This document shows, piece after piece, positions 15,242 through 28,738 of a stretch of 32,000 bases of DNA (position 1 is the first letter of the stretch; every line of letters starts with the position of its first letter). Made by a program: the position numbers and the translations under genes. The DNA comes from Pyrobaculum calidifontis JCM 11548 (lineage in GTDB: Archaea > Thermoproteota > Thermoprotei > Thermoproteales > Thermoproteaceae), in assembly GCF_000015805.1 (NCBI RefSeq), contig NC_009073.1, forward strand, positions 1,505,762 through 1,537,761, in the 5' to 3' direction. Below the pieces are notes generated by a model. That model searched no databases. It saw only the letters and a program-made list of their open reading frames with translations, and had not been told where the DNA came from.

Positions 15242-16552
<1,311 letters not shown>

Positions 16553-17225: not shown

Positions 17226-17396
17226 GTGGACATCCTCCTCGAGGAGGTTAGGAAAGTCTTTGGGAACACCGACGAGGGGAAGCTCGCAGAGAGGCTCATA
17301 GTCGCCTACAGACAACGGGGGGCTAGGGGGGCTAGAGAGGTTTTAAAGAAGTACTTGGAGGAGTTGGGCGTAGATGTGGCGGATATCGAGAGTTGA
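17226..17396 (+). CDS. rkd-3: Arcadin-3 candidate (56 aa), absent from ORF track
   Basis: GTG 17226 to TGA 17394-17396: (M)DILLEEVRKVFGNTDEGKLAERLIVAYRQRGARGAREVLKKYLEELGVDVADIES. The composition is all-helical. A canonical TATA sits at the same 22-23 nt spacing as the neighbouring genes. It overlaps the arcadin-4 start by 23 nt. It fills the only gap in the cluster, at the position expected for arcadin-3. Confidence 0.5.
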   Translation: MDILLEEVRKVFGNTDEGKLAERLIVAYRQRGARGAREVLKKYLEELGVDVADIES

Positions 17397-19761
17397 GCTG
17401 GAGAACTTCCGCTCGTATAGGGGAGCGCACAGGCTGGAGCTAGGCGACGTCAATTTGCTGTGGGGCAGGATAGGCGCTGGGAAAACCTCCGTTTTCTACG
17501 CCATTGAGTACGCCTTGTTTGGCCAACAGCTTGAGGTCAAGGAGAGGGTGGCCAAGCTAGCCGACTTGATACACTCGGGGTCTCACGAGGCTAGAGTGGC
17601 TCTAGAGCTGGTGGACGGGGCCAATGTGCTTAAGGTGGAGAGGAAGCTGGGAAAGCGGGGAGCGGAGAAGCTCGTCGTTGTGCACAACGGCGTAGAGCTC
17701 AGAGGCGGCGAGGCGGAGAGGAGGCTGGAGGAGCTTTTAGGCGTAGACGAGGATTTGTACGAGCGGTTGGTATACATTTCTCACAGGACGCTGGAGGGCT
17801 TTATCTACGGCACCTCTCAGAAGAGGGCAATCTCGGTGGATAGGCTCTTCGGCATCGACGTGATAGACGGCGTAGTTAAGACCGTCTCCTCGGCCGAGAA
17901 GGCGCTGTTGGGGAAGGCGGAGGAGCTGAGGAAGAGGCTGGCGGCTTATGAGAAGTACCGGGATGTGATTAAGAGGTATGGTGGCTACTCGGGGCTAGTG
18001 TCTAGGCTTAGGGCTCTGAGCTCCGAGATTGAGGCGCTGAAGGAGCGGGAGGCTATGTTGACGAGGACGGTGGAGGAACTTGCCAGGGCGCGGGCGGCGT
18101 ATTTGGCGAAGCTGAAGGAGCACGAGCAGATTCTACTGGAGTACTACAGGGCCAGGTCTGAGCTCGAGTTTTTGGAGTCCTCCGCGGGGGGCGAGGTAGA
18201 CGTGGGCGCGCTGGAGAAGGTGAAGGCCGCGCTTAGGGAGGCCGCTGAGGAGTTTGAACACATGCTTGACCCAGGCATATTGGAGAAGTTGTACAAGGCG
18301 TCCGACCTGGAGGCCCTCTCGGTGGCCATGGCCGAGGTGTACGACGCATTGACTAGGGTTGCAAAAGACTTGGAACTCGAGCTGACCGACGTGAAAAAGG
18401 CCTATGAGGAGTATGTGGCCAGGGCGAGGAGACTTGAGGAGGAGGTGGCCGCGGCTGAGGCGCGGCTGAGGAGATTGGAGAAGCCGTTTTTGCGCTTTCA
18501 AGAGCTTTTAAAGAAGCTTCGCTCTTTGGAGGAGGCCCGGGCGAGGCTAAGCGAGGCCAGGCGTAGGCTTAGCGAGGCGGAGAGAGAGGCGGCGTATTAC
18601 ACGTCTCTCAAGACTGTGGCGTTGTACCTAGCTGAGACAAACGCCTCTGTTTGCCCAATATGCGGCTCGCCTATAAGCAGAGAGGCCGTAGAGAAAGTAG
18701 TTCGGGATATCGATGAAAAGTTCGGCGGCGTAGTGAAGAGAGTGGAAGAGCTACGGGAGGAGGTTAAGGCGCTGGAGAGAGAGGTAGAGGAGATGGAGAT
18801 CCTCCAGGGCGACGCGGCAGAGTACATAGCCGCGAAGGCTAGACTGGACGAATTAAAGGTAGAGAGAGAGGAGGTGGTGAAAAAGGTGTTGCAGGCTGAG
18901 AAGTCGGTTAGGCAGTTGGAGAAGAGAATTGAGAAGTTGCGCGAGTTTTTTGCAAAAGTGGACAAGCGTGTCATCTCAGACGCCGTCTCTAGGTATGGGA
19001 GAGCCGTGAGGATTAGGGAGCTTAGGAAAAGGGTCAAAGAACTTGAGGAGAGGCTGAGGCAGGCGGGGATAGGGGGAGAGGAGCTCGAGGTGGAGGTCAA
19101 GTGGAGGGAGGCGGCGGCTGAGCTTGAAAAGGCGGCGGCTAGGCTAGCCGAGTTGTACAAGGAGAAGAGCCTCTTGGAGGAGGCGGCGCGGGAGGTTGGG
19201 GAGGAGGCGGAGGGGCTGAAGAAGAGGCTGGACAACGTGCTGTATGCGTATGGAAGACTAGAGGAGCTCAAGTCCCGGCTTGAGTTAGCCAAGGTTAGCG
19301 CAAGAGCTAGGCTTGTGGAAGTGGTGAGGAGCCGTTTCAACGAGGTGTTTCAAAGCTTGTATAAGTATGGCGACGTTGTGAAAGTGGACGCGGCGGTGGA
19401 GCCCAGCAGGGGGTACTACGACTTCTACGCCATTTCTCCCTCCGGCGATAGATATGGCGTCTCCCGGCTGAGCGATGGGCAGAGGCTGTCAATAGCCCTC
19501 TCCCTGGCCCTAGCGTTAAGAGAAATCTCCCAGGTGAAGCTCGGCTTCTTAATCTTCGACGAGCCGATACCCTACGTCGATGTAAATGTGAGAAAGGCCT
19601 TCGCCCAACTTCTCACATCGCTGGCTGGGCGCTACCAGCTCCTAGTGGCCACCCAGTCTAGGGAGTTCGCGGAGGAGGTCAGAGAGGCTTTGCCAAACGC
19701 AAAGCTGTTCACCGTTGTGAAAGACGGCGCCTCTGCGCTGATAGAGGGGTTACAAAGCTGA
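17374..19761 (+). CDS. rkd-4: Arcadin-4: Rad50/SMC-like coiled-coil ABC ATPase with zinc hook
   Basis: 795 aa. Walker A GRIGAGKTS (17464-17490). About 250-aa E/K/R/A/L-rich coiled-coil arms flank a central CPIC motif (C427-C430, 18652-18663). ABC signature LSDGQRLSIAL (from 19468). Walker B FLIFDEP (19546-19566). Last gene of the crenactin cluster. Confidence 0.85.
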   Translation: MWRISRVELENFRSYRGAHRLELGDVNLLWGRIGAGKTSVFYAIEYALFGQQLEVKERVAKLADLIHSGSHEARVALELVDGANVLKVERKLGKRGAEKLVVVHNGVELRGGEAERRLEELLGVDEDLYERLVYISHRTLEGFIYGTSQKRAISVDRLFGIDVIDGVVKTVSSAEKALLGKAEELRKRLAAYEKYRDVIKRYGGYSGLVSRLRALSSEIEALKEREAMLTRTVEELARARAAYLAKLKEHEQILLEYYRARSELEFLESSAGGEVDVGALEKVKAALREAAEEFEHMLDPGILEKLYKASDLEALSVAMAEVYDALTRVAKDLELELTDVKKAYEEYVARARRLEEEVAAAEARLRRLEKPFLRFQELLKKLRSLEEARARLSEARRRLSEAEREAAYYTSLKTVALYLAETNASVCPICGSPISREAVEKVVRDIDEKFGGVVKRVEELREEVKALEREVEEMEILQGDAAEYIAAKARLDELKVEREEVVKKVLQAEKSVRQLEKRIEKLREFFAKVDKRVISDAVSRYGRAVRIRELRKRVKELEERLRQAGIGGEELEVEVKWREAAAELEKAAARLAELYKEKSLLEEAAREVGEEAEGLKKRLDNVLYAYGRLEELKSRLELAKVSARARLVEVVRSRFNEVFQSLYKYGDVVKVDAAVEPSRGYYDFYAISPSGDRYGVSRLSDGQRLSIALSLALALREISQVKLGFLIFDEPIPYVDVNVRKAFAQLLTSLAGRYQLLVATQSREFAEEVREALPNAKLFTVVKDGASALIEGLQS

Positions 19762-19807: not shown

Positions 19808-20554
19808 TCAGCTTGTGTGTTGCTCTGTTCCAGTATTAAAACTTGCCCTCTGCCAGACGTGGTTGAAGTAAGTCTTGGCAACCTCGATTATGTAGCGCTC
19901 GTTGGAGTAAACTCCGCTCAGTTCGTCGAAGTGTTTTACGTAGATCACGACGGCGTCTCCGATGGCGCCTCCGCCGAAGAGCTCAGCCGTGGTCCTCACC
20001 TCCACGCGGGGAGGCAGGCTCAACATGGGCCTCAGACGTGCAGTGGTAAGAACCTTGATAGACACCCTCTTTGACTCCTCCTCTATTGCCGAGACCAGCC
20101 TATACGTCACCAGCTCTGGGAAGGGGAGAGCGAGGTACACCTCGGAGTCCGCCGTAGTTATGATCTCGTGGACTAACTCGGCAATCCGCTCCGTGCCTCT
20201 CACCAGCGTCAAGAACGTCGAGGCAACTGCGTGCTGTCTCTCGTAGACCATTTGCAACCCGTCGAAATAGGGCTTTAACTGCCTCAACGCCTCCGATGTC
20301 TTGTTTACAAGCATTTTGTAGACCTCCGCGGGGGGTCTCGCCCTGTACCTGTACGGCCTCCCACCGCCCTCCTTTGCCACAACGCCCAGGTTCTCCAACT
20401 TGTAGAGGTAGGTGTATATCTTTGTGTAGGGGATGCCCAGCGCCTCTGCCAACTCTCTTGCCGATTTGGGGCCCTGTTCTACCAAGGCTACGTAGATCTC
20501 CGCCTCCCGCTCCCCGACGCCGAGGAGGGAGAGGACTCTGCCGAGCTGGTCCAC
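19808..20554 (-). CDS. TrmB-family transcriptional regulator
   Basis: The N-terminal wHTH LLGVGEREAEIYVALVEQGPKSARELAEALGIPYTKIYTYLYKLENLGVV is typical of TrmB proteins. A C-terminal effector-like domain follows. GTG start 20554, with TATA gataaata (plus 20573-20581) 23 nt upstream. Confidence 0.85.
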   Translation of the reverse strand: MDQLGRVLSLLGVGEREAEIYVALVEQGPKSARELAEALGIPYTKIYTYLYKLENLGVVAKEGGGRPYRYRARPPAEVYKMLVNKTSEALRQLKPYFDGLQMVYERQHAVASTFLTLVRGTERIAELVHEIITTADSEVYLALPFPELVTYRLVSAIEEESKRVSIKVLTTARLRPMLSLPPRVEVRTTAELFGGGAIGDAVVIYVKHFDELSGVYSNERYIIEVAKTYFNHVWQRASFNTGTEQHTS

Positions 20555-20589
20555 GGAGAGGTGGCGGTTTAGCTATTTATCTTTTTCCG

Positions 20590-20602
20590 TTAACCGGGTT
20601 AA
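20590..20602. promoter_or_regulatory. Perfect palindrome TTAACC-G-GGTTAA; candidate TrmB operator
   Basis: Six-nt arms around one central base. It lies between the two divergent TATA boxes (20573-20581 and 20607-20614) and abuts the A-rich BRE-like stretch of the radical-SAM promoter. Confidence 0.4.
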
Positions 20603-20606
20603 AAAG

Positions 20607-20614
20607 TTTAAATA
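20607..20614 (+). promoter_or_regulatory. TATA box (tttaaata) for the radical-SAM gene
   Basis: Centred 24 nt upstream of ATG 20635 and preceded by aaaaag. Confidence 0.5.
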
Positions 20615-20634
20615 TAGATGGCCACGGGGGCGCA

Positions 20635-22374
20635 ATGAGCAAACAAGTGCTGGAGCTAGAGGCTAAGCCGAAGAGGCTGGTGGATCTCTCCAGGTTTAAT
20701 CTGCCAGAGAGGTACAAATCGACGTTGACAAATGAGAAGTGGCAGACGATGGTCAAGAGGCAGTACGGACTGCCAGAGGATACCCGCGCAGTGAAGGCGA
20801 CGCTGTCTCTCTGCCCAGTCTGCAACAGGAGGATACCGGCTGTGGTCTACGAGGAGAACGGTGCTATATGGCTTAAGAAGAGTTGCCCAGAACACGGCGT
20901 ATTTGAGGACTTGTACTGGGGCGACGCGGAGATGTACTACTACTTCCTCCAGTGGGACAGGCCCGAGTACATCGCCAAGGGCCTTGCAAACCCCTACACA
21001 GATCTGGAGTTCTACAAGGACATGGGCTCTTGTCCCGAGGGCTGCGGCCTCTGCCCAGTGCACAAATCCAACACCGTGTTGGCCATAATCGACGTCACCA
21101 ATAGGTGCAACATGGCGTGCCCCGTGTGTTTCGCCAACGCCGGCGCCGCCGGCTACGTCTATGAGCCGACCCTAGAGCAGATAGAGTACATGTTGCGCAC
21201 GTTGAGGGCGCAGAAGCCGTGGCCCCCCAACGCGATTCAGATATCGGGCGGCGAGCCTACGCTTAGAGACGACTTGCCCATAATCGTATCCATGGCCAAG
21301 AAGCTCGGCTTTACGCACATTGAGGTGAACACAAATGGCATTAGGCTGGCCAACGAGCCGGAGTACTACAAGGCCCTGCTAGACGCGGGCATGTCCACCA
21401 TATACCTCCAGTTCGACACGATCGACGAAAAGAACGAGGGCGTGTGGCGCCACAGGCTTTACCACCCCAAGGCCTACGCCGCCATAAAGTACAGAGTAAT
21501 TGAAAACGCGAGGAAGCTGGGCCACCGCTCCATAGTCCTAGTGGTGACTCTGGCCCGCAACTACAACGACAAGGACTTGGGCAAGATCATCGACTTCGCA
21601 ATTCAGAACAGAGACGTGGTGAGGTGGGTGAATATACAGCCCGTGTCCTTCTCAGGCCGCGCCAGGCTGTACAGCAAGGAGGAGCTCCGCAAATTCCGCA
21701 TAACGATCCCGGACACCATAATTGAGATTGAGAAGCAGACCGGCGGAGCCATCAGCAGGTGGGACTGGCGCCCCACCAACTGGCCAGTGGCCGTGGCCAA
21801 GATGGTCGAGGCGTTGACAGACTCGCCCAAGCCTCTCTTCTCCATGAACCCCATGTGCGGCGCCGCCACCTTCATATACTACGACGAAGACGAGAAGCGC
21901 ATATACCCAATCACAAAGTTGGTAGACGTCGACGCGTTTGAGCGCGGCGCGTGGGATGTGTACTACACAGCGGTGAAGGGCGGAGTGTATAAGCAGGCGG
22001 CTAAGCTAAAGGCGCTGAAGCTATTGAAAGCGGTCAAACACAAGAGGGTAAAAGACTTGATCTACGACTTCCTCGTGAAAAAGGACTACGAGTCGCTTGG
22101 CCGCTTCTTCTTCAACGTGGTGGGCATCGGCATAATGCACTTCATGGACACAATGAACTACGACGTAGAGAGAGTGCAGCGCTGCGACATCCACTACGCG
22201 ACGCCAGACGGCCGCGTATTCCCATTCTGCACATACAACGTCGTCGGACACAGAGAAAAGGTAGAGCAGTCCTTTAAGGTCGATCCAAAGACCTGGGTGA
22301 AGGTGACCGGTGTATCTCTGACCGGGTGGAACAAGCAGAAATTCCAGGAAATACGCACAAGCATAAGCCCATAA
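20635..22374 (+). CDS. Radical SAM enzyme with N-terminal Cys3His ribbon and auxiliary Cys cluster (MJ0619-like; candidate tetraether lipid synthase Tes/GDGT-MAS family)
   Basis: 579 aa from ATG 20635. Track ORF codons 20296-20634 are antisense to trmB. Motifs: CPVC...SCPEHG (20812-20895), CPEGCGLCPVH (21031-21063) and the radical-SAM CNMACPVC, a Cx3Cx2C (21106-21129). SGGEPTL SAM-binding motif and a large C-terminal domain. The family assignment is from memory of the architecture, not from a search. Confidence 0.8.
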   Translation: MSKQVLELEAKPKRLVDLSRFNLPERYKSTLTNEKWQTMVKRQYGLPEDTRAVKATLSLCPVCNRRIPAVVYEENGAIWLKKSCPEHGVFEDLYWGDAEMYYYFLQWDRPEYIAKGLANPYTDLEFYKDMGSCPEGCGLCPVHKSNTVLAIIDVTNRCNMACPVCFANAGAAGYVYEPTLEQIEYMLRTLRAQKPWPPNAIQISGGEPTLRDDLPIIVSMAKKLGFTHIEVNTNGIRLANEPEYYKALLDAGMSTIYLQFDTIDEKNEGVWRHRLYHPKAYAAIKYRVIENARKLGHRSIVLVVTLARNYNDKDLGKIIDFAIQNRDVVRWVNIQPVSFSGRARLYSKEELRKFRITIPDTIIEIEKQTGGAISRWDWRPTNWPVAVAKMVEALTDSPKPLFSMNPMCGAATFIYYDEDEKRIYPITKLVDVDAFERGAWDVYYTAVKGGVYKQAAKLKALKLLKAVKHKRVKDLIYDFLVKKDYESLGRFFFNVVGIGIMHFMDTMNYDVERVQRCDIHYATPDGRVFPFCTYNVVGHREKVEQSFKVDPKTWVKVTGVSLTGWNKQKFQEIRTSISP

Positions 22375-22386: not shown

Positions 22387-24189
22387 CTACCTCCTCTCTC
22401 TTCTTATCACGAGGAGCACAGTAATTGCTAGAGCTACGGCAACTATTGCCAACGGCATCTGAAACGACATAGTATCTCTCTGCTGCGGCGTAGTGGCTAC
22501 TGCGGGTAGGGGTATCGTGGTGTTGCGCATGGCTGGCGGAAGTTCAATGAAATACCGGACCTCGACCCTTGTCGCATTCACTACGGCAAGATACATCTCC
22601 ACTGCGGCGCGGCGCGTCGACAGCTCATAAAGCTGCCTTCTCAACTCGGCGGTGTAGTTGTACAATGCGGACTCTACAAAGCCGAGCCTGGGCAACGCGG
22701 CCAGTTGCTCCACCTGATAGTCTCTAAGGCCACGGGCGTAGTGGACGAGGTCGTCACCAGCTCTCCTGAGCGTAGCAGAGGCGTTGTAAAGCGGCGCCAC
22801 GTATTTAGACACCTCGTCTGCAGTTTTGTAGAGGTTGGCCGCAACGTCGTCTAAGTTCTTCGATGCGTTTAATATGATCTGCGGCATGCCTTGTTTAAGC
22901 GCCGTGGCGTTCCCCCGCGTGGAGGCCGCAGTGGAGTTTAACAGAGGCGCCAGCTCTCCCAAGCTCTTCCTAGTTGCCTCGAGAGTATTCACAGAAGAAT
23001 CAACTATAGCGATAAGGCTGTCTACAATGCCTAGCAAAGAGTCCACGGACTGCCTCAGCGAGCGCAACTGCAAAATTGCTGCGTCGAGAGGTCTCTCACC
23101 TTGTGTTAAATTCAGCTGGGAGAGAGCTCTCTTGGCGCTCTCTAACTCGCCTATCGCCAAGTCGATTGACTGGCGGATTGCCAGTAGATTAGATCTAATG
23201 CCAAAGAGCTGTCTGCGCGTCTCGGCAAGCCCCTGTATTGTCTGCCCAGCGGCCACGTCGTAGGAGGCCAACGCCGCTGACTGCGTTTCTAACAAGTTGG
23301 CGGCTGTTATAAGCGCTAGGTACTGGTAGTCAACTAAGAGGAGGCTCCGGTTTAACACCTGCGACACCCCAGCCGCAGCATCCCCCAGCGCCGCCACTTG
23401 TCTCCTCAGCGCCTCCAGCGCATACGTCGACGTGTTCAACGCGCTGGCCCCCTGGCCCAGGGCAAGGCCCGTCAAGTTGAGAAGCTGAATGAGGCGGGTC
23501 AAATTTTGCAACTGGCCGTAGGCAGTCTCCGTAAACAGTGAGACAACCCTTGAGAAATTCTGTAGCTGGGCAACGGCGCTGTTTAACTCCCTCGTCTGCC
23601 TATCAAAAGCCGACAATGTGCCGTTTAAATCAAGCGTCGCAGTTATAGACACCGTGGGCAACCGTACAGCCCCAAAGCTCCCAAACTCCCTAATCCTCAG
23701 ACCCAGCTTAAACTCTGTGTAGTTACCCACCAGGAGAGCCCAGTAGTACACAGTAGAGCCCGACACCTGGGTCACTGAGGTAGGAGCCACGTCATAGAGC
23801 AGGGCAACTTTTCCATCCGTCGCCACCGACACCACCACGGGCACAGACACAGGGAGAAGGGGACGGAGCTTCACCAATAGCCGAACCACGGTCGTGTTAT
23901 CCGCCCAGAGGACCCCATCTCTATAGACCCCGTTCACATAACTCACGTCTACGTCCACCGCGAGAAATGGGGGATACACATTTTGCGCCGGCCGCTCCAA
24001 CACCACCGCCGAGTAGGGGGGAACCGTCACGCCTGACACATTCACGGGGCTTGGCCCATTGTTTACGAGGACTTCTTGAAGAGAGACAGAGCTCGTGACG
24101 GCGCCCCCAGGCTTTACGTTGTACGTCATTACAAGCGTAGATGCGGCTAGGAAAACCGCCACAGCGAGTAGGTACAAGAGCTGCCTCAT
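22387..24189 (-). CDS. Bitopic surface glycoprotein candidate (600 aa) with long heptad-periodic helical ectodomain; third gene of the MacB/FtsX-type ABC operon
   Basis: N-terminal signal/TM (MRQLLYLLAVAVFLAASTLV). Beta-rich region to about aa 190. About 330 aa rich in L/A/Q/S/N with heptad spacing (e.g. TIQGLAE TRRQLFG IRSNLLA IRQSIDL AIGELES AKRALSQ). C-terminal TM + RRERR. I count 17 N-x-S/T sequons. Its ATG overlaps the ATPase stop by 4 nt. Confidence 0.75.
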   Translation of the reverse strand: MRQLLYLLAVAVFLAASTLVMTYNVKPGGAVTSSVSLQEVLVNNGPSPVNVSGVTVPPYSAVVLERPAQNVYPPFLAVDVDVSYVNGVYRDGVLWADNTTVVRLLVKLRPLLPVSVPVVVSVATDGKVALLYDVAPTSVTQVSGSTVYYWALLVGNYTEFKLGLRIREFGSFGAVRLPTVSITATLDLNGTLSAFDRQTRELNSAVAQLQNFSRVVSLFTETAYGQLQNLTRLIQLLNLTGLALGQGASALNTSTYALEALRRQVAALGDAAAGVSQVLNRSLLLVDYQYLALITAANLLETQSAALASYDVAAGQTIQGLAETRRQLFGIRSNLLAIRQSIDLAIGELESAKRALSQLNLTQGERPLDAAILQLRSLRQSVDSLLGIVDSLIAIVDSSVNTLEATRKSLGELAPLLNSTAASTRGNATALKQGMPQIILNASKNLDDVAANLYKTADEVSKYVAPLYNASATLRRAGDDLVHYARGLRDYQVEQLAALPRLGFVESALYNYTAELRRQLYELSTRRAAVEMYLAVVNATRVEVRYFIELPPAMRNTTIPLPAVATTPQQRDTMSFQMPLAIVAVALAITVLLVIRRERR

Positions 24190-24950
24190 AGCCCAATTAA
24201 CTCGTCTATGCGTCTAAGTTTTTCATACGCCGTAGCGACTCTCTCCAGTTCTATCTTCAGCTCCCTCTTGGGGGGCTCTGCCGCCTCGTAAACTCTGCCG
24301 CTACGCATGTATATGAGCCTTGTGGCTATGCGCGCCACCTCTGCGTCATGTGTCGCAATAAAAACGGTCGTCTTAAAGATCCGGTTCACGGCGGCTATAA
24401 GGGCTAGGAGGTTTGAGGCGTTGTCGGCGTCTAAGTTTGAGGTTGGCTCGTCGAGGACGAGGATGGGGGGATTATTCGCGAGAGCCCGCGCCACCGCGGC
24501 GCGTTGTTGCATGCCGCTGGACATCTGCTGTGGGTAAAGCCCAGCGGCCTTCTCCAACCCCACTAGCTCGAGAAGCACCCTGGCCTTCAGCAGGGCCAGC
24601 TCCTTCTTCACGCCCAGGGCAATTAGGGGGAGGGCCACGTTCTGCTCCGCGGTTAAATAGGGCACGAGGTTGTAGCTCTGGAAGAGGTAGCCTATGTTCC
24701 GGAGGCGGAACTTCTCCAGCTTCTTCTCTGGCATGTTGACAACATCTACGCCCAACACGTACACCTCGCCGCTCGTTGGTCTATCAAGCGTCGCCACTAT
24801 GTTCAACAACGTGGTCTTCCCCGAGCCCGAGGGACCCATCAACACCACAGACTCCCCCGGGGCCACTACAAGCGAGACTTCTTCTAAGGCCACGGTTCTC
24901 ACAGCGCCGTTCCCATACACCTTGCTCACCCTCCTAAGCTCTACCGCCAT
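24186..24950 (-). CDS. ABC transporter ATP-binding protein (MacB/LolD/FtsE-type)
   Basis: Walker A GPSGSGKTT, Q-loop, signature variant MSSGMQQRAAVARAL, Walker B ILVLDEPTSNLD, H-loop ATHD. The N-terminus VELRRVSKVYGNG...VALEEVSL is typical of the MacB/LolD subfamily. Confidence 0.9.
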   Translation of the reverse strand: MAVELRRVSKVYGNGAVRTVALEEVSLVVAPGESVVLMGPSGSGKTTLLNIVATLDRPTSGEVYVLGVDVVNMPEKKLEKFRLRNIGYLFQSYNLVPYLTAEQNVALPLIALGVKKELALLKARVLLELVGLEKAAGLYPQQMSSGMQQRAAVARALANNPPILVLDEPTSNLDADNASNLLALIAAVNRIFKTTVFIATHDAEVARIATRLIYMRSGRVYEAAEPPKRELKIELERVATAYEKLRRIDELIGL

Positions 24951-26080
24951 AGCTGAAGTATCTCAATAGGCCGCAACTTTGCCACTCTATACAGCGGCGA
25001 GGCGGCCCCCGCTAATGCTACTGCTAGAGAGGCTGACAGGGCTAGGGCGATGTAGCGGAGCTTGAACTCTATGGGGACGTCGAAGTTGACGCCCATACCT
25101 ATCAAAATTTGTTTGACAAGCGTGGCGCCGTAGAAGCCCAGCGCCGCGCCGGCGATCCCGGCGGCCACGCTTAGCAACGCCACTTCCACAGCCACGGACA
25201 CGACGATGTCGGAAGACGAAATGCCCACGGCCTTGAGCAAGCCGAATTCCCTAAGCCTCTCCCTGGCAGTGATAGACATGACGGCGAAGGTCGTCACGGC
25301 GGCTGTGGCAAGCGCCGCGGCGCTTATCACAGTGAAGACGAAGTTCAAAGCGTTGAAGACCTGGGATACTGTATTCAACAGAGCCTCTTGGGTATACACC
25401 TGGGCATCTCGGAACGTCTCTTTCAGCGTCTTGTAAAAAGGCGTTACATACCCCTTGTCTCTGAGCGTTATCAAGACGGCGTTGACGAAGGGGCCAGCCC
25501 CCAGCTCTTCCTGAAGCCAGTCAAGGGGAACCACCACCAGATTTAGCCTAAAGGCGCCTATGAAGCCCCTTAAGAAGCTCCTCATAACACCCACCACCTT
25601 AACCGTGACTGTCCTCTCCCCGCCCAAGGCGCCTGAGTACACCTTAATCGTGATAGTGTCGCCGGGCCGCGCGGCGAGTGACTCTTCTACAACGGCCTCG
25701 CCCCCCGAGGAGGGGAGTCTCCCCTCCTTTAAGTCAATGGCGAAGTAGTCGACGTCTCTAAGAGGTATCCCCACGATAGATACCACTTGCCCATTCACAA
25801 CGCCGGTGGTAATTATGATCCCCTCTGCCCCACTTACGGCGGGGTTACGCTGGAGCAAGTCCACAAGCCGCTGTGGGATATTTATAGAGTCTGAATACAT
25901 CATAATATCGGCTGGGTAGACTTTGTAAAGCGTCTGCTCCACGTAGGCCCTCGTGGCGTCGCTGACGGCGGTTAAGGCCACCAGCAACGCTACGCCGACG
26001 CCTATGGCGACTGCTGTCAACAAATATCGCAAGGCCCTCGACTTCAAGTCTCCTAAGGCGAGCATCAGTACGTGGTCCAC
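24941..26080 (-). CDS. ABC transporter permease, FtsX/MacB-type (4 TM with large extracytoplasmic domain)
   Basis: TM1 (RYLLTAVAIGVGVALLV), then an extracytoplasmic domain of about 220 aa, then an FtsX-domain core (ITARERLREFGLLKAVGISSSDIV) and the C-terminal LYRVAKLRPIEIL. The start is ambiguous: GTG 26080 by TATA spacing, ATG 26065, or track GTG 26125. 10-nt overlap with the ATPase gene. Confidence 0.85.
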   Translation of the reverse strand: MDHVLMLALGDLKSRALRYLLTAVAIGVGVALLVALTAVSDATRAYVEQTLYKVYPADIMMYSDSINIPQRLVDLLQRNPAVSGAEGIIITTGVVNGQVVSIVGIPLRDVDYFAIDLKEGRLPSSGGEAVVEESLAARPGDTITIKVYSGALGGERTVTVKVVGVMRSFLRGFIGAFRLNLVVVPLDWLQEELGAGPFVNAVLITLRDKGYVTPFYKTLKETFRDAQVYTQEALLNTVSQVFNALNFVFTVISAAALATAAVTTFAVMSITARERLREFGLLKAVGISSSDIVVSVAVEVALLSVAAGIAGAALGFYGATLVKQILIGMGVNFDVPIEFKLRYIALALSASLAVALAGAASPLYRVAKLRPIEILQLWR

Positions 26081-26098
26081 GGCCTCTACGCCGCATCC

Positions 26099-26108
26099 TT
26101 TTATATAC
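26099..26108. promoter_or_regulatory. Single TATA box (ttttatatac) shared by the divergent ABC operon and MMPL gene
   Basis: Centred about 24 nt from GTG 26080 (-) and about 22 nt from GTG 26126 (+). It is the only A/T block in the 45-nt spacer. Confidence 0.45.
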
Positions 26109-26125
26109 TTGTCTAATGCCCCCAC

Positions 26126-28738
26126 GTGAAGAGGACGGTGGCGGCCGCTGTAGCTCTCCTAATCTTGTACGTATACTTAGCGCTCCACTCGCCCAATGTA
26201 TTTAGCGTGCTGGTATACGATGAGTCTAAGCTTACGCCTCCCGACGTAGAGCCAAAGCTAGTAGACTCCATAGTCAAGCAGAAGAACGGCAGCGGAGTGA
26301 ACACCGTGCCGGTGGTCATATTCGGCCCCTTCCTTGAGGACAAGGCGAGGAATTTGACAAAGCTGTTCCCTAATTCAACAACCCCGTGGACTATTTTAGA
26401 TAAGGCACTGGACATCTACTGGCGACGCATAAAGGCCACCGTTGAAAACGCCACTGTGGCGTTTAGAGACGTAGCCGTGGCCGTGGCAAACGCCACAGGA
26501 GAGACGTGTAGCGAATTGAAGAAGCTCGTGCAGGGGTACACAGAGGCGAGGGAGAGGGCTAGGGAGCTCCTCTTAGCCACATACGGAGTCGCGGCGCTGG
26601 GGAAAGCTGTGGACAACAAGACGGAGGAGTTCCTCAAGAAGTACAGGGAGTATGTGGCAGTCTACGACGTGGACGTGGCGGTGAGATTAGCAGCAGAGGA
26701 GGTCTACGGCGTCAACGCGTCGCGGCTCTTGGCAAATGTCACGTGGAGGACGTGGGCCTCTGAGGGCGCCGTGGAGAACGTGACAGAGGCCATTTTATCC
26801 ACAGCCTTGAACAAAACGTTGATACAACTGGCGCGGGAAGTCGCAACTGTAGGCGTGGAGAAATACGTCTATGTATCCACAGTGAATAAGGCCCCGCCTG
26901 TTTTGCGCCCCTACCTGTCCTACCTCGTGTGTAACGGCGATGTGGACCGCGCCGTCGAGCTCTTTAGAGCCGACTTGCTGAGGAATATAACGGCGCAGTA
27001 TCCGCCCCCCACTTTGGACACGCAGAAGCTCGCGTCCCAGCTGGTGTACAGGGGGAAGTACGCGCTTGCCTTTGTCAAAGCCACTGAAGATAAGCCGGTT
27101 ATACCCCTGGCGCTGGGCGTGCCTGTCTCTATGGCGTACATAATGGACAGCTTTAGAGAAATTGTGACACAAGACGTCTCCTCAATAGACAAAACCACCG
27201 CAACGTCTCTGCTTGTGGTACTTCTGGCGGTTATGGGGACGCTTGCGGCCCCCCTCGTAATAGTGTCCACCGTTGGCCTCACGTACCTCGCCGTCTTGGG
27301 ATTCCTAGAGCAGATAAGCAGCTTCCAAGGCATATACTACCTCGTCGTCTACATGGCGGCCCCCGTGGTCTTCGCCATAGGAGTAGACTACATGCTCCTC
27401 ATGACTAGCCGCTATGGGGAAGAGAGGGCTACTGGCAAAAGCAAGAGGGAGGCCATCGACGTCGTGGTTAAATACGCCAGGAGGGCCATAGCGGCTAGCG
27501 CCGCGGTGGTGGCCACATCGCTTGGCTCATTCGCCCTCTCCACTCTCCCATTTATGCAGTCCATAGGAATAGGCTATATAATCACCACGGCGTTTGTCGT
27601 AGCCTCCGTCTTCGTAGTTTTTCCCGCCATCTTGTATGTCCTGGGCGATAAGATCTTCTGGCCTAGGAAAAAGGTCGTTGGACACACAGGCAGGTCCAGG
27701 CTGATGGCCAAGGCGGTGGACCTCGCGTTGAGAAGGCCCCTCGCCGTAGCCGCCGTAGCGCTGGCCGCCACGCTAGTCTCCTTCATATTTCTAACAACGA
27801 CTCTAAAGATCACAACCGACCCAGTTGTGGCAATGCCAGAGACGCAGCACAAGAAGGCCCTAGAGATTGCCACCAAATACTTTTCTAACATCACGGCGAT
27901 TTCTACCACGTATGTAGTAATGAGGGAGCCTCCGCCGCCGCAAGTTCTGGCAACCGTGGAGGGGCTACCTCACTACGTTAACCATACTGTGGAAAAGATC
28001 GGCGATTGGTATGTAATCAATGTAAGGCTCTCTGTGGAAGACACATCTGACGAACTGTTGAAGGTGTATCAGCTCTTGAAGCCGCTTAAGGATCAATACG
28101 GCGCATTAATTGGCGGAGCCGCCTCTTGGAAGAACGTGGTATTCAACGAGATTTACGTCCGATTTTGGAACTTCCAAGTGTACGTGGTAATAGTGGCGGT
28201 TTTCGTAATACTCGCCGTGTTGTTGAAAAGCTTCCTAATCCCCCTCCGGCTGATAGCCACAGTGCTTATGTCTATAGCGTGGAGCCTCGCGCTGGAGGTG
28301 CTCCTCTTCCAAGAACTCGCAGGACAGCCCACATACTGGCTCGTGCCCATAATCCTCTTCGCCTTTTTAATGGCCGTGGGGACAGACTACGACATTTTCA
28401 TTATTGCGAGGATAAGAGAAGAGCTTGAGAAGGGGCTCGGCGAGAGGGAGGCGATAAAAAGGGCCATCGTCACCACAGGGCCCGTGATAACGGGCGCCGC
28501 CTTGATCTTGGCCACGGCCTTCTCCACCCTGCTCCTATCTCAGCTCACTCTGCTGAGGCAGGTGGGCTTCACCATAGCCTTCGCGGCGCTGGTAGACGCC
28601 TTCGTCATAAGGCCCCTCGTCGTGCCAGCCCTCATCGTGCTGGCGGGCAAGTACAACTGGCTGTGGGTCACGGGCTACAGCGTCAAAGTTATAAACCCAG
28701 AGCTCGGCGGAGGCCGTGGACCTAGTCCTCTTGATTAA
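26126..28738 (+). CDS. MMPL/RND-superfamily exporter (12 TM) with enlarged glycosylated first ectodomain
   Basis: 870 aa with two MMPL-type TM bundles carrying GVDYMLLMTSRYGEE and GTDYDIFIIARIREE motifs. TM1 is followed by a loop of about 320 aa that is largely helical, with at least 11 N-x-S/T sequons. The second loop is shorter (about 130 aa). Confidence 0.85.
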   Translation: MKRTVAAAVALLILYVYLALHSPNVFSVLVYDESKLTPPDVEPKLVDSIVKQKNGSGVNTVPVVIFGPFLEDKARNLTKLFPNSTTPWTILDKALDIYWRRIKATVENATVAFRDVAVAVANATGETCSELKKLVQGYTEARERARELLLATYGVAALGKAVDNKTEEFLKKYREYVAVYDVDVAVRLAAEEVYGVNASRLLANVTWRTWASEGAVENVTEAILSTALNKTLIQLAREVATVGVEKYVYVSTVNKAPPVLRPYLSYLVCNGDVDRAVELFRADLLRNITAQYPPPTLDTQKLASQLVYRGKYALAFVKATEDKPVIPLALGVPVSMAYIMDSFREIVTQDVSSIDKTTATSLLVVLLAVMGTLAAPLVIVSTVGLTYLAVLGFLEQISSFQGIYYLVVYMAAPVVFAIGVDYMLLMTSRYGEERATGKSKREAIDVVVKYARRAIAASAAVVATSLGSFALSTLPFMQSIGIGYIITTAFVVASVFVVFPAILYVLGDKIFWPRKKVVGHTGRSRLMAKAVDLALRRPLAVAAVALAATLVSFIFLTTTLKITTDPVVAMPETQHKKALEIATKYFSNITAISTTYVVMREPPPPQVLATVEGLPHYVNHTVEKIGDWYVINVRLSVEDTSDELLKVYQLLKPLKDQYGALIGGAASWKNVVFNEIYVRFWNFQVYVVIVAVFVILAVLLKSFLIPLRLIATVLMSIAWSLALEVLLFQELAGQPTYWLVPIILFAFLMAVGTDYDIFIIARIREELEKGLGEREAIKRAIVTTGPVITGAALILATAFSTLLLSQLTLLRQVGFTIAFAALVDAFVIRPLVVPALIVLAGKYNWLWVTGYSVKVINPELGGGRGPSPLD

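Follow-up and report, generated by a model that had tools for sequence, protein, structure and literature searches.

A probable new kind of extracellular partner for a MacB-type ABC transporter in Pyrobaculum calidifontis and its relatives

To our knowledge, the ATP-binding cassette (ABC) systems of type VII, such as MacAB, LolCDE, FtsEX, and YbbAP, are understood only in bacteria, in each case through a specific extracytoplasmic partner. Many MacB/FtsX-type pairs are encoded by archaea, and the question raised by the locus described here is what such a pair works with in an archaeon. The locus lies in a 32,000-nt stretch of Pyrobaculum calidifontis JCM 11548 (contig NC_009073.1, positions 1,505,762 to 1,537,761), called the window below, whose numbering is used for all positions in P. 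calidifontis; here, the genes for a permease and an ATPase are followed by a gene for a 600-aa protein, designated P3. An earlier note, made from the DNA sequence, had described this operon as a possible mechanotransmission module and claimed that no archaeal equivalent with a dedicated partner had been characterised. Consistent with that claim, literature searches on PAE2285, on partners of archaeal MacB/FtsX systems, and on archaeal gene-neighbourhood surveys returned no description of the module, of the P3 family, or of any archaeal type VII ABC partner, and no report of a partner or function for the archaeal MacB/FtsX-type pairs. We favour, at a probability of roughly 0.55, the reading that the three genes encode one machine, with P3 as the partner of a MacB-type ABC transporter and with a role as an adaptor in the expulsion of substrates. 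For the MacB/FtsX-type transporter class, P3 probably represents an extracellular partner of a new type.

The three open reading frames (ORFs) are found on the minus strand in the order permease, ATPase, and P3. The permease gene (24941..26080) encodes 379 aa from a likely GTG start at 26080; the ORF is open up to a GTG at 26125 (24941-26125, 394 aa), and the start is probably at 26080, as alignments of homologues begin only at residues 4-16 and a TTTATATA box is located upstream of it. The ATPase gene (24186..24950, 254 aa) overlaps the permease gene by 10 nt, and 4 nt (ATGA) are shared between the ATPase gene and that for P3 (22387..24189, 600 aa), in agreement with the order and overlaps reported earlier. 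Such overlaps suggest translational coupling. The TTTATATA box (26100..26107, no strand assigned), read directly from the sequence, is in the 45-bp region between the ABC operon and a divergent gene for an MMPL-family transporter, placed 24 nt upstream of the permease GTG and 19-26 nt upstream of the GTG of the MMPL gene at 26126, and it may serve as a TATA box or promoter. In other Pyrobaculum loci, this divergent region is 60-70 bp long and contains two A/T-rich boxes.

The permease and the ATPase are ordinary members of a known superfamily. The permease scores above the gathering threshold for both Pfam MacB_PCD (PF12704; residues 35-224, 60.3 bits versus a cut-off of 27, E-value 4.3e-16) and Pfam FtsX (PF02687; 57.5 bits versus 25.5, 1.7e-15), and hydropathy defines four transmembrane (TM) segments, at residues 36-54, 259-277, 307-325, and 358-376. 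It has both features of a type VII ABC permease, the FtsX-type C-terminal four-TM module and a large MacB_PCD ectodomain, the latter being an extracytoplasmic domain of the Porter/Sabre type located between TM1 and TM2. This domain comprises about 205 aa, somewhat fewer than the 220 or so first estimated. The closest solved relatives by sequence are Streptococcus pneumoniae Spr0695 (5xu1_M, 1.2e-10) and Escherichia coli MacB (5nik_J, 5.5e-10). Orthology to FtsX was rejected, as the NF038346 model (FtsX_actino) reaches 19.5 bits where its cut-off demands 250 and the sole Pfam match to the ectodomain is MacB_PCD, and so was orthology to LolCE, for which NCBIfam scores are far under the cut-offs. 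The initial description of the permease as FtsX/MacB-type therefore holds for its four TM segments and its two family matches, but the protein is MacB-like and not an FtsX orthologue. The ATPase matches Pfam ABC_tran at 8.9e-32, and its best NCBIfam models are DevA (4e-57), LolD (7e-56), FtsE (2.5e-54), and MacB (5.7e-53), all below their equivalog cut-offs, which indicates membership in the LolD/MacB/FtsE/DevA clade rather than orthology to any one of them. Beyond the nucleotide-binding domain, it carries a helical C-terminal extension of about 30 aa (window 24186-24275).

It is P3 that sets this operon apart. The protein matches a hypothetical protein of P. calidifontis at 100% identity and represents a new, unnamed family, PAE2285-like, whose homologues fall into 49 clusters, all from Pyrobaculum or close relatives and none in a Pfam family. 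As judged from an alignment (A1), profile matches, two structural models, and gene contexts, the family is characterised by a length of ~600 aa, an N-terminal signal or anchor, a beta base with conserved YYW and F/LGSFG-type motifs, long antiparallel helices, a return strand, a C-terminal TM segment, and an adjacent gene for a MacB-type ABC ATPase. P3 itself has two hydrophobic segments, at residues 4-22 (hydropathy 2.31) and 577-595 (hydropathy 2.57), which the earlier note had taken as N- and C-terminal TM segments. The latter forms a C-terminal TM anchor with a basic cytoplasmic tail of ~5 aa (residues 577-597, 22399..22461, on the minus strand, as are all P3 regions given below; model helix 579-597), whereas the former looks like a signal peptide or signal anchor (residues 1-22, 24124..24189), the n-h-c pattern being suggestive of cleavage.

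The count of N-x-S/T sequons in P3 is exactly 17, as first reported, compared with a mean of 3.9 in 2000 shuffled sequences (standard deviation 1.75, maximum 11). Fifteen of the positions are kept in at least 17 of the 22 family members, with N252, N280, N418, and N427 being invariant, and these 15 conserved sequons support an extracellular, glycosylated P3. The MMPL protein has 13 sequons and the permease has none (9 Asn in all, the 205-aa ectodomain included); it is only speculation that a sequon-free permease would fit a buried or covered ectodomain. The most conserved parts of P3 flank two helix breaks. Column conservation reaches 0.8-0.9 at residues 228-307 (23269..23508; sequons N229, N238, N252, and N280), the top conserved stretch, around the first break, versus 0.66 in the beta base, and the second stretch, residues 408-447 (22849..22968; sequons N418, N427, and N441), surrounds the second break with its conserved Met-Pro. 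The least conserved parts are the turn between helices H2 and H3 (about residues 358-366), the linker, and the TM segment.

An AlphaFold2 model of P3, based on a 22-sequence alignment and with a mean pLDDT (predicted local distance difference test) score of 74, displays, in order, an N-terminal helix, the beta base, four helices, a return strand, a disordered linker, and the C-terminal TM helix (model numbering is protein numbering minus 1, Met1 having been clipped). The base (residues 23-187, 23629..24123), modelled as a membrane-proximal beta-sandwich of about 15 strands at a pLDDT of about 90, is also the region matched by the distant relatives described below. The four long helices (residues 188-537, 22579..23628, by DSSP of the model) measure ~92, 73, 72, and 100 residues in a helical region of ~350 aa, are antiparallel, and are modelled at a pLDDT of 55-80; a periodicity of 3.5 residues is locally significant at residues 186-300 (z = 6.9) and 420-570 (z = 9.1). 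The return strand to the beta base (residues 538-551, 22537..22578, pLDDT 85-93) covers 540-547 in model numbering. The heptad-periodic helix of about 330 aa originally described is recovered in its local periodicity and approximate extent, but the prediction is of antiparallel hairpins leading back to the beta domain, not of one parallel coiled coil. The helix lengths would fit equally well a folded-back, antiparallel four-helix bundle of ~14 nm or a hairpin of ~25 nm kinked at one height in both arms. An internal duplication of the helical region (H1-H2 versus H3-H4) was considered and rejected, with an hhalign probability of 15%.

An independent AlphaFold model of the distant relative P0099, which is 16% identical to P3, has the same plan at a pLDDT of 81, including the return strand to the beta base; here the helices form one hairpin of 19 nm, and the TM segment is followed by a cytoplasmic helix. 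The agreement of the two models supports both homology and an out-and-back topology, and the shared plan would place both chain ends at the membrane with the helices directed outward. Foldseek matched the beta base of P0099 (residues 29-243; E about 1e-8, TM-score about 0.45-0.5) and, more weakly, that of P3 (23629-24123) to mu-homology domains from the AP and COPI adaptor complexes of eukaryotes. This likeness, the only non-helical fold match found for the models, is probably one of structural analogy.

The anchors of P3 and its relatives bear on one alternative to P3 as a partner, namely that it is a cargo or client, with a MacB/LolCDE-like ABC transporter extracting or releasing its N-terminal anchor, be it a signal anchor or, in some relatives, a lipid, or aiding its assembly at the surface. 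The genes would then be kept together as those of a secretion ABC transporter and its substrate are. Dedicated transporter-cargo gene pairs are common, which counts for this explanation. LolCDE, itself a type VII ABC system, extracts lipid-anchored proteins (PMC5985334). The N-termini of distant P3 relatives have AxA-like sites or Cys-containing ends, and a Cys just after the signal peptide, in a lipobox-like setting, is found in P0078 (IAAC-D) and P0084 (LPGC-Q), along with a TAPC-E version, among P0078, P0083, and P0084 (loci L011 and L023). Such members might be lipid-anchored at the N-terminus, and the Cys of P0078 and P0084 would suit a client of a LolCDE-like system. Against this, the Pyrobaculum, Thermoproteus-like, and Vulcanisaeta members are without such a Cys, retention of the C-terminal TM anchor in all members makes release from the membrane unlikely, and one-to-one operon coupling with overlapping genes is a better fit to a stoichiometric complex. 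A role for P3 as cargo is accordingly quite unlikely in our view.

Whether P3 is tied to the ABC pair at all is best answered outside of Pyrobaculum, since within the genus synteny extends across the entire region (MMPL, permease, ATPase, P3, radical SAM, TrmB, and SMC-like arcadin genes) and linkage alone consequently says little. An exhaustive profile search recovered distant relatives of ~600 aa at E-values from 1e-5 to 1e-79, the matches lying for the most part in the beta base and the first portion of the helices; these proteins are 13-35% identical and have the same overall plan. The earlier note had proposed conservation of the third gene with the ABC pair as a test of its reading, and the reading passed it: an ABC ATPase gene was found to adjoin the P3-like gene in 9 of the 11 divergent lineages (L013, L014, L017, L018, L020, L021, L023, L024, and L025), with a MacB_PCD/FtsX permease gene also present in six of these nine and with different flanking genes in every lineage. 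The order permease-ATPase-P3 is kept for P0051 (L013, Thermoproteus-like), P0054 (L014), P0099 (L021), P0084 (L023), and P0125 (L024), while at L020 (P0066) the ABC pair is divergent from, rather than co-directional with, the P3-like gene. ATPase-P3 pairs with no FtsX/MacB permease gene within 6 kb on either side occur for P0060 (L017, 5087-7770, Vulcanisaeta) and for the Vulcanisaeta-type P0061 (L018, 5223-7746) and P0091 (L025, 4190-7058), and P0057 (L016) and P0078 (L011) have no ABC neighbour. Searches of the fetched DNA by tblastn revealed no hidden permease in the Vulcanisaeta-type loci and no hidden ATPase in L007, L011, or L016. For the Vulcanisaeta-type loci, there are two options: a permease gene located elsewhere, or direct coupling of the two-TM P3-like protein to the ATPase. 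At L007 (4862-7806), a locus from a Pyrobaculum-related metagenome-assembled genome that cleanly lacks the ATPase gene, the genes for the permease and P3 still share a 4-nt overlap. The trio of P. oguniense is found in an unrelated context, next to a TFIIB-like gene, a STAND NTPase gene, and a penicillin amidase gene. Further protein searches with profiles A2 and A3 returned no new relatives, and a metagenome scan yielded only duplicates or loci at contig edges. Directly downstream of the P3-like genes at L011 (2648-3133) and L020 (7904-8392) is a gene for a protein of 161/162 aa without a Pfam match, the two being 70% identical.

Taken as a whole, the evidence for a functional linkage of P3 and the ABC pair is strong, and it weighs on the contrary explanation that P3 is an independent surface glycoprotein, whether structural, adhesive, or a virus receptor, for which adjacency to the ABC genes has no functional meaning. 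That explanation draws on the fact that the P3 architecture and an abundance of sequons are common among archaeal surface proteins such as SlaB, on the two distant relatives that are not beside ABC genes (P0057 and P0078), and on the uninformative synteny within Pyrobaculum. It would have to accommodate a linkage that persists in 9 of 11 deeply diverged lineages despite unrelated flanks, a change in orientation, and the new context in P. oguniense. It also leaves aside the ATPases, which carry a charged helical C-terminal extension of 30-80 aa past the nucleotide-binding domain in every case of linkage to a P3-like gene, a common mark by which they form a recognisable and distinct subfamily. 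The P3-like proteins of the most distant group carry, beyond the TM segment, a cytoplasmic helix of 26-42 aa that could pair with the ATPase extension; the ATPases and P3-like tails compared include those of L020, L021, L023, and L024. The cytoplasmic tail of Pyrobaculum P3 is only ~5 aa.

The same explanation meets a further difficulty in the surface layer (S-layer) of Pyrobaculum, which consists of a single self-anchored, Ig-rich protein of 2,667 aa and 292 kDa whose lattice stands 37 nm above the membrane and needs no separate stalk (bioRxiv 10.64898/2026.08.21.746120). The SlaB stalks of the Sulfolobales resemble P3 in having a signal peptide, a beta-sandwich, a long helical region, a C-terminal TM segment, and heavy N-glycosylation, but SlaB is a parallel coiled coil that runs straight into its TM segment, whereas the P3 helices are predicted to be antiparallel and to lead back to the beta base, and P3 is tied genetically to an ABC system in an organism with a one-protein, self-anchored S-layer. 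P3 as the S-layer protein or its stalk was ruled out on the basis of the published S-layer identity; P3 has 600 aa, and its base is no canonical Ig array. An independent surface glycoprotein is, in sum, very improbable.

The known partners of type VII and related ABC systems were the obvious points of comparison, and EnvC/PcsB, MacA, and YhgE had been suggested as such in the earlier note. No sequence or fold similarity to these proteins was apparent in Pfam, NCBIfam, the PDB, or the Foldseek matches listed. P3 and its homologues fall into no family in Pfam or NCBIfam, with sub-threshold coiled-coil noise only, and the sequence matches of P3 and of profiles A1 and A2 to Pfam, NCBIfam, and the PDB, being compositional coiled coils only (the FAK FAT domain, designed bundles, spike HR1, SNAREs, and chemoreceptors), were rejected as homologues. 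Among the top 50 Foldseek matches to the PDB listed for the P3 and P0099 models are chemoreceptor-like bundles, ClyA-type toxins, and mu-homology domains, with no EnvC, PcsB, MacA/HlyD, MCE, or YhgE protein, or any other membrane fusion protein, for either model. At the level of individual domains, HlyD, HlyD_3, HlyD_D23, and Biotin_lipoyl_2 gave no match at E <= 1 for the Pyrobaculum members or at E <= 0.001 for the distant members; LytM, CHAP, NlpC/P60, or a degenerate hydrolase-control domain was not found in P3 or its homologues with Pfam and NCBIfam; and the MlaD/MCE domain (PF02470), YhgE/Pip, and xxxLxxG repeat models had no Pfam or NCBIfam match. The only Mce-related signal is a sub-threshold one to Mce4_CUP1 in one P3 homologue (17 bits versus a cut-off of 32.6). 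Some P3 homologues are labelled 'MlaD' by JGI (Joint Genome Institute) pipelines.

In organisation, the operon most resembles MacAB, YknXYZ of Bacillus subtilis, and Spr0693-0694-0695 of S. pneumoniae, which likewise combine a MacB_PCD permease, a LolD/MacB-like ATPase, and a membrane-anchored extracytoplasmic protein in one operon. In these partners, as in the P3 model, the chain runs out along a long alpha-hairpin and back to a beta domain close to the membrane. The best solved relatives of the permease belong to these very systems. The pumps of single-membrane bacteria also share with Pyrobaculum the setting of one membrane with a bounded space above it. Adaptors acting with MacB-type pumps are established in such bacteria, the hairpin proteins YknX and Spr0693 being thought to guide substrates off the membrane (PMC5985334). 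P3 differs from the bacterial partners in its C-terminal TM anchor, its predicted heavy N-glycosylation, its two to three times greater amount of helix, and its archaeal host. Compared with the membrane fusion proteins (MacA, HlyD, and YknX), P3 is without the lipoyl, beta-barrel, and MP domains and without an HlyD Pfam match, the out-and-back hairpin topology being the only common feature. The resemblance to MCE/MlaD, Mce1-like needles, and YhgE/Pip is one of general layout, with an N-terminal anchor, a beta domain, long projecting helices, and an ABC ATPase, but no MCE or YhgE models matched, and the permease is of the MacB/FtsX type and not of the MlaE/YrbE or ABC-2 type.

The main alternative to an adaptor is suggested by FtsEX and its partners EnvC, PcsB, CwlO, and RipC, a system with which the operon would have in common, by analogy, a type VII ABC transporter acting as a mechanotransducer, a dedicated partner with long antiparallel helices, and the dispensability of substrate transport. 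P3 would then be a lever, its hairpin switched by the ABC transporter such that the conserved glycosylated zone activates or positions an envelope factor, for instance in S-layer remodelling or insertion or in the handling of glycans during growth and division, with no transport taking place. Type VII ABC systems drive coiled-coil partners in this way (PMC7668044 and PMC10214136). The most conserved zones of P3 (residues 228-307 and 408-447) are located far along the helices rather than in the base, a placement suggestive of a distal binding site, and a two-helix hairpin of the P0099 type, if correctly modelled, would dimerise naturally on a two-fold-symmetric permease dimer. However, the permease ectodomain matches MacB_PCD, with no FtsX-specific model at the cut-off and no orthology to FtsX; P3 is membrane-anchored and has no enzyme-regulating domain (LytM, CHAP, or NlpC/P60) in Pfam or NCBIfam; and in the distant loci examined, no conserved gene for a candidate effector accompanies the module. 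It also counts against a lever of this kind that Pyrobaculum is without peptidoglycan. We regard the lever as unlikely, while recognising it as the most serious competitor.

The favoured adaptor role can be set out as follows. Type VII ABC systems convert ATP hydrolysis into movement of an extracytoplasmic domain and work with a specific partner (reviewed in PMC5985334 and PMC8277102). A permease dimer and an ATPase dimer would constitute such a MacB-type mechanotransducer, and P3 would be its dedicated, membrane-anchored, N-glycosylated partner, with the beta base at the membrane surface beside the MacB_PCD domain of the permease and the antiparallel helices reaching 14-25 nm out into the gap of 37 nm below the S-layer. 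In the cytoplasm, ATP would be bound and hydrolysed, which would move the permease ectodomain, and this motion would be passed on to P3. In a role like that of MacAB, YknXYZ, and Spr0693-0695, the machine might take amphiphilic or hydrophobic molecules, such as lipids, lipid-linked compounds, or peptides, off the outer face of the membrane and guide them away, with P3 as the adaptor or conduit. As P3 is not homologous to the bacterial adaptors, this would be a convergent solution. More tentatively, and with appreciably less confidence than in the adaptor role as such, it is possible that P3 typifies a convergent class of extracytoplasmic adaptors for archaeal type VII ABC systems, in which oligomers of glycosylated hairpins form a conduit or lever reaching 14-25 nm or longer toward the S-layer canopy, and that together with the ABC transporter, and in Thermoproteales perhaps with an MMPL/RND (resistance-nodulation-division) protein, it makes up the first archaeal counterpart of the bacterial envelope-spanning efflux or lipid-trafficking assemblies. 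The term 'envelope-spanning', which the earlier note applied to the partner, goes beyond the model, whose projection of 14-25 nm compares with a space of 37 nm. The mechanotransmission module proposed there is upheld as regards linkage, which is strong, while the partner has turned out to be a new family, and its mechanism, its physical contact with the ABC transporter, the stoichiometry, the substrate, and any role for the MMPL protein are matters that we infer.

Several observations weigh against an adaptor in a single three-gene machine. The P3 helices are modelled at moderate confidence (pLDDT 55-80), so that the bundle and the long hairpin both fit. In two of the 11 distant lineages (P0057/L016 and P0078/L011), the P3-like gene is without an adjacent ABC gene, and the three Vulcanisaeta-type loci have an ATPase but no permease within 6 kb. 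For many of the distant relatives, the E-values are modest (1e-5 to 1e-8), although they are corroborated by shared architecture and gene context. Finally, P3 has no detectable sequence or fold likeness to MacA/HlyD, EnvC, MCE, or YhgE, and as it resembles none of the known partners, its adaptor role rests on analogy.

Among the neighbouring genes, the one for the MMPL-family RND transporter (26126..28738, plus strand; 870 aa, 13 sequons; Pfam MMPL 6.5e-71), which is divergent from the ABC operon, went unmentioned in the earlier note. A divergent MMPL gene also neighbours the module elsewhere in Pyrobaculum, at L013 (1504-4080) and L014 (1362-3923), and at L017 of Vulcanisaeta (2254-5043); it is not adjacent to the module in P. 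oguniense or in more distant lineages. This pattern may mean that the MMPL gene belongs to the module as a fourth member, or it may reflect inherited synteny in Thermoproteales. With its recurrence in four Thermoproteales lineages, the MMPL/RND neighbour is a better lead than crenactin, to whose cluster the earlier note had drawn attention. The crenactin gene (15245-16552, Pfam Actin) and a gene for an SMC-like protein of 795 aa (17374-19761), arcadin-4 by position, are indeed present in the window, and the cluster adjoins the module in 9 of the 11 Pyrobaculum-type loci examined, the window counted, but this synteny is confined to Pyrobaculum. We rejected a functional link between the module and the crenactin/arcadin cluster, given that the adjacency is missing in P. 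oguniense, in the Thermoproteus-like L013, and in all distant loci. On the other side of the operon, a radical-SAM ORF (20296-22374, plus strand, 692 aa; Radical_SAM and HMPTM zinc ribbon) is convergent with P3 and ends 12 nt from the P3 stop codon. Its 5' end is over-extended; Pro and Arg are abundant in the first ~117 codons, alignments with homologues start only near residue 118 (MSKQVLE), and the first ~86 codons (260 nt) overlap a gene for a TrmB-family regulator (19808-20554, minus strand).

A conserved, dedicated partner provides a handle on the function of type VII ABC machines in archaea. P3 also bears on how the wide gap below the S-layer of hyperthermophiles, which in Pyrobaculum measures 37 nm, is crossed by material or force, and on whether adaptor-like hairpin proteins arose independently of the bacterial membrane fusion proteins. 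The recurrent MMPL neighbour hints at the handling of lipids or other hydrophobic compounds at the archaeal surface, a largely unexplored aspect of the biology of these organisms.

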